A DNA stretch of 64,000 nucleotides, taken from assembly GCF_058153355.1 (NCBI RefSeq), contig NZ_CM177019.1. One strand, written 5' to 3'. The notes under the pieces are model-generated. The model saw only the letters and a list, made by a program, of their open reading frames with translations. It searched no databases and had not been told where the DNA came from. Below are positions 1-60,549 of the stretch, piece by piece; the first letter of the stretch is position 1; each line of letters opens with the position of its first letter. The position numbers and the translations under genes were made by a program.

Positions 1-1377
1 GGGTACAAGCCCCTACCGCTAAAAAGAGTTTTTATACCCAAATCTAATGGCAAGAAAAGACCATTAGGAATCCCCGTCATGCTTGACAGGGCAATGCAGG
101 CCCTGCATCTGCTGGGATTGGAGCCTGTATCGGAAACTAATGCAGATCACAACAGTTATGGTTTCAGACCAGCGCGATGTACGGCTGACGCCATTCAACA
201 GGTATGTAATATGTATAGTTCCCGGAACGCCTCGAAATGGGTTCTGGAAGGCGATATTAAAGGATGCTTTGAACACATTAGCCACGAGTGGCTGCTTGAA
301 AATATTCCTATGGACAAGCAAATACTCCGTAATTGGTTGAAAGCCGGGATCATCGAAAAAAGCATATTCAGCAAAACTCTCTCGGGTACACCCCAGGGAG
401 GAATCATATCTCCAGTTCTGGCAAACATGGCCCTGGATGGACTGGAAAGACTGCTGCAAAATCGCTTTGGTCCGAAACGCTCAAAAACATTCAGGAAACA
501 TCAGGTTCACTTCGTCCGGTATGCTGATGATTTCATCATTTCCGGAAAGTCGAAAGAACTTCTGGAGGAGAATGTTCTTCCGTTGGTGAAATCATTTCTT
601 GCAGAAAGAGGGCTGACGTTATCCGAAGAGAAAACGGTCATCACTCACATTACTGACGGATTTGATTTCCTTGGGCAGCACGTCCGACGCTTCGGTAGAA
701 AACTCATAATCAGACCAGCCAAGAAAAACGTTAAACAATTTCTTAGCAAGATCAGAGAGACTATTGAAGGTAACCGAACGGTTCCTGCATGGGTGCTAAT
801 AAATCTGCTTAATCCAATCATCACCGGGTGGGCAAACTATCACCAACATGTAGCATCGGCAGAGACATTTAACTATGTCGACAACCAAATCTGGCGCAAA
901 ATCTGGCAGTGGTGCAGAAGGAGACATCCCGGCAAAGGCCGGAGATGGATCTTCCGAAAGTACCACACGACAATAAAAATGTGTCATGGTCGATTTTATG
1001 GAGTCGATCCGGAGGGTAGGAAATATGTTCTGTCCCGGGCCAGCGACATCCATATTAATCGCTATATAAAAATAAAGGGAACGGCAAATCCATATGATCC
1101 CGAGTGGGAAACATACTTCGAAAGAAGGCTGGACTACTCATGGAAGAAATCCCAACAGGGGCAGAAAAGGATTCTCGCTATATGGAAAAGGCAAGGATCG
1201 CGCTGCCCTTTATGTGAGCAACCGATTAATCGCGATACAGGATGGAATGTTCATCATTTGCTCAAGAAATCTCTTGGCGGTAGCGATGATGTGAGCAATT
1301 TAGTCCTACTCCATCCCAACTGCCATCGACAACTACATAGTAATGACGCTGGTCTCCCACAAGGTGGAGGCTTATAA
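1..1377 (+). CDS. Group II intron-encoded protein (reverse transcriptase / maturase / HNH endonuclease), 5'-partial
   Basis: Frame 1 is open from nt 1 (GYKPLPLKRVFIPKSNGKKRPLGIPV...); FVRYADDFII RT motif; ITGWANYH maturase motif; C-terminal CPLC...HH...HPNCH HNH motif. Confidence 0.85.
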   Translation, partial: GYKPLPLKRVFIPKSNGKKRPLGIPVMLDRAMQALHLLGLEPVSETNADHNSYGFRPARCTADAIQQVCNMYSSRNASKWVLEGDIKGCFEHISHEWLLENIPMDKQILRNWLKAGIIEKSIFSKTLSGTPQGGIISPVLANMALDGLERLLQNRFGPKRSKTFRKHQVHFVRYADDFIISGKSKELLEENVLPLVKSFLAERGLTLSEEKTVITHITDGFDFLGQHVRRFGRKLIIRPAKKNVKQFLSKIRETIEGNRTVPAWVLINLLNPIITGWANYHQHVASAETFNYVDNQIWRKIWQWCRRRHPGKGRRWIFRKYHTTIKMCHGRFYGVDPEGRKYVLSRASDIHINRYIKIKGTANPYDPEWETYFERRLDYSWKKSQQGQKRILAIWKRQGSRCPLCEQPINRDTGWNVHHLLKKSLGGSDDVSNLVLLHPNCHRQLHSNDAGLPQGGGL

Positions 1378-1383
1378 AGGCTT

Positions 1384-1417
1384 GAGCGGTATGCGGGGAA
1401 ACTCGCACGTACCGTTC
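1384..1417 (+). ncRNA. Group II intron domain V (catalytic hairpin)
   Basis: GAGCGGTATGCGGG-GAAA-CTCGCACGTACCGTTC: about 34-nt hairpin with conserved AGC triad and GNRA-type loop, directly after the IEP stop. Confidence 0.7.
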
Positions 1418-1420
1418 TTA

Positions 1421-1455
1421 GGGGGCGGCGAGACAGTAATGAATCGCTGCTACCC
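1421..1455 (+). ncRNA. Group II intron domain VI with bulged branch-point adenosine (A1452)
   Basis: ggg/ggcggcga-loop-tcgctgct/A/ccc: 8-bp stem plus 3-bp basal stem with single unpaired A on 3' side. Confidence 0.5.
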
Positions 1456-1493
1456 GACCACCCGCAAATTCAATTCATTGCGCCCCATCGCAG

Positions 1494-1518
1494 GCCTGAT
1501 AAGCGTAGCGCATCAGGC
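1494..1518. repeat. REP (repetitive extragenic palindromic) element downstream of cobB
   Basis: Palindrome gcctgataagcgtagcgcatcaggc. Confidence 0.6.
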
Positions 1519-1531
1519 AATGCTTCCTGCT

Positions 1532-2353
1532 TTATAAGCCCTTCAGCAACTTTTCAACAAACTCTGGCACCACCTGGCTTGCCGGGCCGTAATATTTCTC
1601 GGCAAATTCATTACCGACCTGACTCGGTTCAAGATTGAGTTCCACAGTGTGCGCACCATGCAGTTTCGCTTCGTGAACAAATCCAGCCGCCGGATAAACA
1701 TGCCCGGAAGTACCAATGGCAATGAAAATATCGGCCATCGACAACGCCATATAAATTTCATCCATGCCGAGTGGCATTTCGCCAAACCAAACGACGTGCG
1801 GGCGCAAGGGTGCCGGGAACTGGCAACAATGGCATTTATCTTCTGGCGTAACGTCTCCGGTCCAGTCGAGAATCTGACCACTTTGCGAACAACGTACTTT
1901 CAGCAATTCCCCATGCATATGAATCACATTGGTATTACCTGCGCGTTCGTGCAGATTGTCGATATTCTGCGTCACCAGCAAAAAGCGATCGCCGAGAGCA
2001 TCTTGCAGTTTAGCTAGCGCAAGATGCGCGGCGTTAGGCTGAATTTCTGGCTGCTGTAGCTGTCGACGACGGGCGTTATAAAACGCTTGCACCAGTTCAG
2101 GATCGCGATCGAAACCTTCCGGCGTTGCCACATCTTCAACCCGATGTTCTTCCCACAGGCCATCTGCGGCGCGAAAGGTACGAATACCTGATTCCGCGGA
2201 AATCCCTGCCCCTGTCAGTACGAGTACTCTTGGTTTTTCCATTGCTTCCGGCACCACTTTATCTCTGAAAAAAATACGCTGACGCAAACGCTCGCGCAGG
2301 CGGCGTTTATTTTTACGAAAACGACTTAACCGATGACCCCGACGCGACAGCAT
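1532..2353 (-). CDS. cobB: NAD-dependent protein deacylase (sirtuin), long isoform
   Basis: 273-aa ORF with [11 protein letters not shown]ossmann motif and zinc-binding cysteines; recognised as CobB. Confidence 0.9.
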
Positions 2354-2368
2354 AGCAACCTCTGTTGT

Positions 2369-3280
2369 TTAATCGGTTAGATGTAGGAAAGCCGCACCAC
2401 GCATTCCTCCCGCATCACCGTGGCGCGCGCGTTCAATGCGCGGAACACGAGCTACAGGTAAGAGATGACGAGGCAGCCTGTCCGCCAGTTGCGTTGTGAT
2501 TGCCGGGAAATTCGATAAGCCACCACCAATGACGACCAGGTCAGGGTCAACAATGGTCAGGATATTTCCCAGACAAACCGCTAATAAATCCAGATAACGC
2601 TCAACGTGCGCCCTTGCCTGCTCATCGCCTTGATCATAAAGCGCAATAATTTCGGGAGCCTGCAACGGTTGATGATAATAGTGTTGATACAGCCACGCAA
2701 AACCGCGACCAGACAGATAATTTTCAATGCAGCCATGCTGACCACAGCCGCAGCGGCGTAATGGGAAATCCAGCCCCATCATGGTTAACGCATCAACCGG
2801 CAGACGCATATGGCCAAACTCGCCGGTAATATAGCTTTTACCGGTAATTGGTTTACCGTTGAAAATCAGCCCGCCGCCAACGCCGGTGCCGAGAATCAAC
2901 CCCATCACCAGTGGATATTGAGTAAATTCATCATCCCAGGCTTCTGAAAGGGCAAAACAGTTGGCATCGTTATCAAGGCGGACATCGCGATCAAGACGTG
3001 CGCTCAGATCTGCACGCAGCGATTTACCGCTGGCAGCGGGGACATTGGCGGCATACAGCGTACCATCTTCTGTTTCCGGCATTCCCGGAATACCGATGCC
3101 GACAGAACCTTTACAGCCAAAACGCTTATCGGCTTCAGCCACCAGCTCGCACACTGCATCTAAAAATGCGTCATAGCTGTCACGCGGTGTCGGCACGCGC
3201 TTTTCCCACTGCAACTGCCGACCGCTATTAAACACGCCAAGCGCAATTTTTGTTCCACCAATATCAAACCCGTAATACAT
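2369..3280 (-). CDS. nagK: N-acetyl-D-glucosamine kinase
   Basis: ROK-family protein; start placed at internal ATG ([11 protein letters not shown]) giving 303 aa. Confidence 0.85.
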
Positions 3281-3308: not shown

Positions 3309-6557
<3,249 letters not shown>

Positions 6558-14402: not shown

Positions 14403-14492
<90 letters not shown>

Positions 14493-16128: not shown

Positions 16129-17430
<1,302 letters not shown>

Positions 17431-60444: not shown

Positions 60445-60549
60445 TCACGAGGGCGCATTTGCGCCCTTTATTTTTCGTGCAAAGGAAAACGTTTCCGCTT
60501 ATCCTTTGTGTCCGGCAAAAACATCCCTTCAGCCGGAGCATAGAGATTA

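Follow-up and report, generated by a model that had tools for sequence, protein, structure and literature searches.

A plasmid hok-gene group II intron beside Escherichia coli cobB: probable insertion into a REP tail that mimics its homing site

What brings an endonuclease-encoding group II intron to rest between the genes of a bacterial chromosome, close to a repetitive extragenic palindrome (REP)? The question is raised by the opening of a 64-kb stretch of Escherichia coli chromosome (NCBI RefSeq assembly GCF_058153355.1, contig NZ_CM177019.1; the window, by which we mean the whole stretch), in which cobB, nagK, lolE, and lolD stand in the RefSeq-annotated order. A first-pass annotation had called the site odd for an endonuclease-type intron and the intron's target rules unknown. 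Herein, those rules prove readable from related copies, in which the exon-binding sites (EBSs) of the intron covary with the intron-binding sites (IBSs) of the flanking exons, and they largely explain the location as an RNA-guided insertion at a REP tail that resembles a homing site in hok, a plasmid toxin gene. Very probably, the element is a plasmid hok intron of subgroup IIB1 and chloroplast-like lineage 1 (CL1), encoding a reverse transcriptase (RT)-maturase-HNH protein, that inserted into the REP tail by cobB through this mimicry of hok in EBS pairing. It is a canonical endonuclease (En)-containing IIB1/CL1 intron whose mechanism is equally canonical, and it represents no new type of element. 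What deserves note is that REP tails are repeatedly used as mimics of a homing site in a plasmid toxin gene; in the literature searched, we found no prior report of this, of group II introns in hok or in REPs, or of REP tails as targets.

The intron in the window and its full-length relatives

The window carries, at 1-1458 on the plus strand, the 3′ part (62%) of a subgroup IIB1 intron that alignment to full-length copies puts at 2,359 nucleotides (nt). Its first letter is intron position 902 (the part in the window being positions 902-2359), and the 5′ 901 nt, which hold domains I-III, the 5′ end of the open reading frame (ORF), and the 5′ junction, lie outside. The visible ORF (1-1377, plus strand, open at the left edge) comprises the C-terminal 458 codons of the intron-encoded protein (IEP) and a TAA stop at 1375-1377, ending 6 nt before domain V. 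The RT, maturase X, and HNH motifs noted in it at first pass are borne out by Pfam matches to RVT_1 (plus strand, as are the others; about nt 34-684, aa 12-228; E 1.2e-40), GIIM (about nt 730-963, aa 244-321; E 2.4e-23), and HNH (about nt 1204-1341, aa 402-447; E 6.2e-10). Further downstream, the Rfam model RF00029 (Intron_gpII) matches over its full length at 1382-1458 on the plus strand (65.5 bits against a gathering score of 40; E 1e-11), close to the 66.2 bits scored by domains V and VI of the E. coli plasmid intron EcI5. Both the covariance-model alignment and a minimum-free-energy fold give domain V as a catalytic hairpin of 34 nt that is capped by a GAAA loop and has a 2-nt bulge (1384-1417, plus strand), and domain VI as a hairpin (1420-1456, plus strand) in which the branch-point A at 1452, 7 nt from the intron end, is unpaired; the first-pass annotation had placed domain V and the bulged A at these same positions. 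An unconstrained fold of 1378-1462 returned the same two hairpins and bulged A (z = −4.6), and 0 of 200 shuffles were as stable. These features identify a genuine mobile group II intron, which presumably still splices and moves.

The 3′ splice site, first placed somewhere within 1456-1462, falls exactly at 1458/1459 on the plus strand, because similarity to all other intron copies stops at 1458, while similarity to intron-free E. coli chromosomes, including the empty sites at loci L003 and L039, begins at 1459. The intron ends in CCCGAC (its final AC at 1457-1458), and the 3′ exon begins CACCCGC, with C at position +1. A junction shifted by one base, which the intron-final C and the exon-initial C would permit, was rejected, as it would put a C at the first position of the intron, where every copy has G. 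In the closest empty site, that of strain Z0117EC0005 (L003, 2968-3004 adjoining 3004-3040), the uninterrupted sequence reads GCCAGATGCGGCGTCAACGCCTTCTCTGGTCTACGA/CACCCGCAAATTC, the slash marking the insertion point.

REPs of E. coli are imperfect palindromes of about 35 nt, with the consensus GCC(N)GATGCG(R)CG...CG(Y)CTTATC(N)GGCCTAC, that lie between genes and often occur as inverted pairs, forming bacterial interspersed mosaic elements (BIMEs). The REP previously seen 35 bp beyond the intron is real (the palindrome GCCTGAT...ATCAGGC at 1494-1518, minus strand, found in the sequence and by a REP-family scan of the window), but the REP relevant to the insertion is a second one, inverted with respect to it, whose sequence GCCAGATGCGGCGTCAACGCCTTCTCTGGTCTACGA forms the 5′ exon; it is known from the empty site and lies upstream of the intron, outside the window. 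The two make a tail-to-tail pair, and comparison with the empty site identifies the 3′ exon (1459-1493) as the linker between them. As judged from the empty-site genomes, the intron sits in this linker in antisense orientation to cobB, with the convergent genes potD and cobB on either side, and interrupts no gene, in agreement with the intergenic, antisense placement of the first-pass annotation.

Full-length copies measure 2,357-2,363 nt, begin with GUGCGAC, and, at 99.7-99.9% identity to the window in the shared part, carry domains I-IV (Rfam group-II-D1D4-7 model at 112-121 bits). Together with the domain V/VI match, this decides in favor of the first-pass annotation the two checks that could have refuted it. 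The window differs at 5 nt (99.66% identity) from the copy on E. coli plasmid CP057208 (L005), at 1 of 1,458 nt from a copy in a Logan assembly (L021), and at 1-2 nt from L022; all three have the EBS2/EBS1 pair CAGAG/UCGUAG. When the full IEP was rebuilt, by joining the N-terminus of a sister protein to the 458 residues of the window, and looked up as an exact protein, the 559/562-aa product was found unchanged in public assemblies, at the rsmC site of L021, in L022 (intron only), and in hok on the plasmid of L023, with one of the occurrences on an F plasmid adjoining traX-finO; no record of the exact 458-aa partial product was found. The window ORF is thus the C-terminal 458 aa of a protein that is intact on other contigs, and because the rebuilt IEP exists exactly elsewhere, the visible part of this copy is both undamaged and recent. 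We infer that this genome also holds a full-length 5′ half. If the insertion occurred as proposed, the REP tail ...TCTCTGGTCTACGA (...CCTTCTCTGGTCTACGA) should be joined directly to GUGCGAC (GUGCGACAAG), and domain I should carry the guides GUAACAGAGAAC (EBS2a/EBS2) and UUCGUAGU (EBS1). The junction k-mers defined for the intron are CTACGAGTGCGACAAGAAGTCG for the 5′ and GCTGCTACCCGAC (plus 12 nt) for the 3′ junction.

By pairwise matches to reference RTs, we file the intron in IIB1/CL1. Specifically, the IEP matched the RT of Th.e.I3 (PDB 6ME0) over nearly its full length (E 1.6e-187, 628 bits) and the EcI5 IEP at 54% identity over 553 aa (604 bits), both from subgroup IIB1 introns with CL1-lineage RTs (PMC8643678). 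LtrA, of the ML lineage, matched at E 3.5e-39; it and the class IIC RTs scored at most 138 bits, with IIC weaker still. EcI5 also matches the same Rfam D1D4-7 and domain V/VI models, and in the domain I alignment GUCG-UAA-CAGAG-AAC of the sister copies stands opposite GUCG-UUA-ACCAG-AAC of EcI5, reproducing the published EcI5 assignment of EBS2 as ACCAG and EBS2a as U (PMC8643678). As read in the sister copies, EBS2 occupies the internal loop of domain ID, with EBS2a two nt upstream and an A after it, and EBS1 lies in a separate hairpin loop. Membership of class IIC, which the hairpin-adjacent site had suggested, was rejected, given that EBS2 covaries with IBS2 and that an HNH domain is present. 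Separately, in EcI5 on pO157 of strain Sakai (L038 35666-38071), the natural 5′ exon UCGAAU faces the EBS1-homologous loop GUUUGC with two G-U wobbles and a mismatch, so the resident site is not a perfect match to its own guide; the idea that EcI5 lacks an EBS1 at this loop was rejected, as GUUUG pairs with the natural IBS1 CGAAU through the two wobbles.

Guide pairing at hok and at REP tails

From the sequences at hand, this lineage normally resides at one fixed point within the hok-family toxin genes that IncF plasmids carry. The plasmid collection held 20 full-length copies, 77-100% identical, from E. coli, E. albertii, Citrobacter, Salmonella, and Enterobacter (recorded as five genera), and all seven copies whose junctions were read (L001, L002, and L004-L008) occupy the same point of the gene, near its 3′ end, splitting the Glu codon of a conserved C-terminal Ala-Tyr-Glu (GCY TAC GA/A). 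The exon context is ...GCU UAC GA/A UCC GGU AAG UAG in hok and ...GCC UAC GA/A GCA CGU AAG UAA in the srnB-like allele. Only 2 of 5,426 complete E. coli genomes carry the intron, both on F-type plasmids, and a survey of Enterobacteriales introns lists as E. coli targets insertion sequence (IS) elements and Rhs-associated IS (Rsh IS) (PMC3522654).

Residence in a post-segregational killer gene could change toxin expression. An unspliced mRNA would encode a Hok protein ending in ...AYE-CDKKSSNILF in place of ...AYESGK, and toxin output may hence depend on splicing; annotated Hok coding sequences do run into the intron (L001 3090-3140; L004 263-433). The plasmid of L001, pCRST030_1, also has the RT gene of another, distinct group II intron (WP_058914895.1, at 1-296), 3 kb upstream of the hok intron.

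The target rule emerges from covariation across these copies. EBS1 reads UCGUAA where the exon has UUACGA and UCGUAG where it has CUACGA (one compensatory pair), and EBS2 reads CAUGA opposite UCAUG and CAGAG opposite CUCUG (three compensatory pairs). EBS2a is G in the CAUGA/UCGUAA subtype and A in the CAGAG/UCGUAG subtype; to judge from its closest relatives, the window copy belongs to the latter (EBS2a/EBS2/EBS1 A/CAGAG/UCGUAG). One hok allele, GCAACAATGGCTTACGA (the 5′ exons of L002, L027, L029, and L031), holds the CAUGA subtype though its IBS2 forms only three of five pairs, which suggests either that IBS2 mismatches are tolerated or that the occupied allele has spread by recombination.

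We scored pairing of EBS1 with positions −6 to −1, of EBS2 with −13 to −9, and of EBS2a with −14. The REP tail of the empty cobB site, TCTCTG-GT-CTACGA, forms all 12 of 12 pairs (6/5/1 for EBS1/EBS2/EBS2a, with T at −14), and no other position in the 64-kb window reaches six EBS1 pairs together with at least four EBS2 pairs. The subtype's own hok site (srnB-like ACTCTG-GC-CTACGA) scores 6/5/0. The two sequences differ only at −14 and at −7, a position that is not paired, and the tails of some REPs, T(C/A)TCTG-G(C/T)-CTACGA, are almost the same as the srnB-like hok allele. Where REPs of the window end in other tails (TATCAGGCCTACCG, TATCCGGCCTACAAG), no intron is present.

Nor is cobB the only chromosomal site at which the CAGAG/UCGUAG subtype is found. 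Exact-protein look-ups of this subtype in draft genomes revealed a copy between ybaL and gsk (two assemblies, L012 and L013) and one between leuQ and rsmC (two samples, L010 and L021), both at REP tails (5′ exons ...GCCAGATGCGGCGTGAACGCCTTATCTGGCCTACGA and ...GCCAGATGCGACGCGGGCGCGTCTTATCTGGCCTACGA, respectively) that score 6/4/1. A further copy lies in ptrB (GCA_015118455, L009, junction 3402/3403, AAACTGATCTACGA), where IBS1 pairs at 6/6 and IBS2 at 3/5 positions, for a score of 6/3/0. Of the four distinct chromosomal sites, REP tails thus account for three. The gsk insertion is precise, since an in silico join of its two exons agrees with empty genomes at 300/300 bases. The ptrB-like gene (...QDKLIYE) carries the intron in the sense orientation, a gene-disrupting ectopic hop.

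As a control, we read 18 contigs for the L001-type proteins P0122/P0123 (CAUGA/UCGUAA subtype): 17 were in hok, and of the nine places shown, all but one (L028) were. That ectopic site, on an ENA metagenome contig (CAATCATGGTTAACGA/AACTCG, followed by another RVT_1 ORF and IS66), carries UCAUG, the subtype's own IBS2. Another non-hok site, L037, reads GTTGATGGCTTACGA up to the junction; the L028 and L037 5′ exons are of the UUACGA/UAACGA type, and the EBSs of L037 could not be read. A 5′-junction scan of one genome per species found nothing, and a metagenome scan found only five stretches, with UUACGA-type 5′ exons, four in hok and one ectopic, of which the two that could be read through domain I were L001-type; these two sources therefore gave no further REP cases.

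Several observations weigh against the proposed insertion by guide mimicry. Position +1 (IBS3) is C at cobB and A at every other site seen (all hok sites, gsk, rsmC, and L028), so that the EBS3-IBS3 pair is probably lost at cobB. At −14, the subtype's own hok site carries an A that mismatches the EBS2a A, while EcI5 needs the EBS2a-IBS2a pair at −14 for mobility (PMC8643678); the rule may be looser here, or the register of the helix may differ. For the window copy, the 5′ junction and domain I with its EBSs lie beyond the window edge, so that their sequence is taken from relatives showing 1-5 differences over the 1,458 nt in common. Further, only four distinct chromosomal sites are known, some of which may share ancestry, and spread is rare, because a chromosomal copy, at cobB or elsewhere, is absent from all 5,426 complete E. 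coli genomes. Such rarity fits the view of these introns as transient in Enterobacteriales (PMC3522654).

The same mismatch at −14 has a second implication. At this position the EBS2a A finds a partner in the T of REP tails but none in the A of the subtype's own hok site, which suggests that the guides now fit the REP subset T(C/A)TCTGG(C/T)CTACGA better than they fit the plasmid gene. It is possible, though we advance it only tentatively and think it doubtful, that the CAGAG/UCGUAG subtype is a REP-homing group II intron in the making, beyond stray ectopic hops. If so, the retroelement would gain a chromosomal niche that is both multi-copy and selectively neutral, and conjugative plasmids would serve as its launch pad. 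The case also shows, base by base, how a plasmid-borne retroelement gains a chromosomal foothold: a repeated host element happens to match the 12-14 nt recognized by the intron RNA at its plasmid home and thereby offers insertion sites that interrupt no gene. The target rule predicts which REP alleles and strains are vulnerable, and the cobB, gsk, rsmC, and hok sites, which differ at −14 and +1, provide a natural test bed for the EBS2a and IBS3 rules set for EcI5.

Routes to the REP tail and known relatives

The best-supported mechanism is ordinary, canonical group II retromobility. An F-type plasmid with the intron in hok would have entered the strain, where the spliced lariat RNA and the IEP would have paired EBS1, EBS2, and EBS2a with the REP tail; the intron ribonucleoprotein would then have reverse-spliced into the top (potD-sense) strand of the tail, the HNH domain would have nicked the bottom strand, and the RT would have copied the intron RNA into DNA. 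The expected outcome is a precise insertion, without duplication, in the linker of the REP pair between potD and cobB.

The En-dependent step of this retrohoming pathway is the one most open to an alternative, namely, that the intron reverse-spliced into transiently single-stranded DNA, at a replication fork or at an extruded REP hairpin, and was primed by a nascent strand. We consider this somewhat unlikely, although REPs can extrude as hairpins. In its favor, the cobB 3′ exon shares nothing obvious with hok 3′ exons, and in Ll.LtrB and EcI5 positions of the 3′ exon guide bottom-strand cleavage (PMC8643678). Yet the 3′ exons of two hok alleles also differ from each other, so recognition on that side looks loose anyway, and the IEP keeps an intact HNH domain. 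Moreover, GC skew places the sense strand of the intron on the leading-strand template, which does not favor a fork-dependent, En-independent route, as En-less introns such as RmInt1 favor the lagging-strand template; taking K-12 gene order and orientation, the four chromosomal sites presumably lie on both replication strands. Another departure from the canonical pathway would have the REP hairpin itself recognized as a structure, as class IIC introns use terminator or attC stem-loops, the resemblance to hok being incidental. Three of the four chromosomal sites do lie directly after a REP stem-loop, in a geometry like that of IIC introns inserted after terminators (PMC3522654). This is nevertheless very unlikely: as a IIB1 intron, the element has an HNH domain and an EBS2 that covaries with IBS2, both absent from IIC introns; no REP consensus appears in the 60 nt of 5′ exon that were read at the hok home and at ptrB (compared as sequence); the window's REPs with other tails are empty; and the ectopic sites of the other subtype match its EBS2, not a hairpin.

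The cobB copy could instead be a dead remnant, either because incomplete reverse transcription or a later deletion truncated its 5′ end or because it is a fossil incapable of splicing. The window does begin at intron position 902, with the 5′ 901 nt outside; the exceptional C at +1 could impair exon ligation; and a terminator-like hairpin follows potD, upstream of the intron, so that transcription of the intron's sense strand may be weak. Set against this, the visible 1,458 nt differ from L021, L022, and L005 by just 1-5 nt, the ORF stays open as far as its usual stop, its product matching exactly a protein intact elsewhere, and domains V and VI score within a bit of those of EcI5. Near-identity to the sister copies implies a recent insertion with little time to decay, and we regard a dead remnant as unlikely. 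Passive arrival, by integration or recombination of plasmid DNA or with a larger mobile element, is scarcely credible. At the cobB 3′ junction the chromosome resumes at the next base, with no plasmid flank, both gsk junctions are exact to the base, and all sites obey the EBS/IBS rules; what speaks for it is a single contig of GCA_042204225 (L014, intron at 3412-5770), in which a plasmid hok 5′ exon is joined through the intron to the chromosomal gsk 3′ exon. That chimera reflects either two copies collapsed into one during assembly or a recombination event that linked plasmid and chromosomal introns.

Canonical retromobility into a look-alike site, the reading we prefer, can be set beside what is known of related introns. 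EcI5 (E.c.I5; IIB1/CL1), from pO157 of E. coli O157:H7, shares the RT-X-HNH architecture, the plasmid-borne state in E. coli, and the homologous EBS2 internal loop with EBS2a two nt upstream. It is a different lineage, with no megablast similarity to the present intron, a different target (CTGGT-GC-TCGAAT/C), and, unlike the present intron, no known association with REPs or hok; a single natural copy has been recorded, its homing site undescribed (PMC3522654). The closest solved relative of the IEP is that of Th.e.I3/T.el4h of Thermosynechococcus (IIB1/CL1; cryo-electron microscopy structures 6ME0 and 6MEC), which shows the EBS2a-IBS2a pair at −14 (PMC8643678) and likewise proliferates to many genomic sites; it differs in being an intron of a thermophilic cyanobacterium that proliferates with ORF-less derivatives and has no link to REPs or plasmid toxins. 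In ectopic retrotransposition of Ll.LtrB and RmInt1, new sites are reached by sometimes imperfect IBS1/IBS2 pairing (PMC3522654), and the ptrB, L028, and L037 sites fit the same picture. What differs here is that a repeated element supplies the look-alike, giving one subtype several pre-made, near-perfect, and probably harmless sites.

Other mobile elements come to similar places by other means. Class C (IIC) introns also take up intergenic positions immediately 3′ of a palindrome, which spares genes from disruption, but they lack EBS2 and En and read the hairpin, whereas the present IIB1, En-containing intron reads sequence. REPs and BIMEs serve as insertion targets for IS1397, ISKpn1, and the REP-associated RAYT transposases. 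These are DNA transposases of unrelated chemistry, with no protein or RNA homology to the present intron. EcKTE56.groEL (bioRxiv 10.1101/2024.12.23.630110), likened to the present intron by description only, is an E. coli IIB1 intron and an efficient site-specific retrotransposon at the extreme 3′ end of a host gene (the groEL stop codon), its host gene and site being different.

The cobB region and other features of the window

The gene next to the intron, cobB (1532-2353, minus strand), encodes a Sir2-family deacetylase, is intact according to the ORF list and the RefSeq annotation of matching genomes, and is convergent with the intron. Its stop codon lies 13 nt from the REP at 1494-1518. 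The region downstream of cobB is polymorphic. In most strains, ycfZ adjoins cobB, and this common ycfZ-cobB allele has the REP tail TATCCGGCCCACAAA (also given as CCGGCCCACAAA), which would not pair with the EBSs of the intron and is a predicted non-target. In a rare lineage that lacks ycfZ/ymfA, potD adjoins cobB, and the REP allele is the perfect target (L003 2930-3080 compared with L039 270-430); at 99% identity or more, this allele occurs in only 13 of 5,426 complete E. coli genomes. Directly upstream of potC, L003 carries a phage integrase gene.

The 5′ exon of the empty site, GCCAGATGCGGCGTCAACGCCTTCTCTGGTCTAC, aligns with REPs of the window at 14404, 17385, 37216, and 48481, as well as with its inverted partner at 1494-1518. 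One of the REP pairs, at about 17353-17385, is overlapped by a match to naRNA4/CssrE (17352-17427, minus strand). This and three other gathering-level Rfam matches, to the small RNA SraB (36420-36588, minus strand), the rne 5′ untranslated region element (38449-38785, plus strand), and the PyrC leader (60500-60549, plus strand), are ordinary E. coli features.

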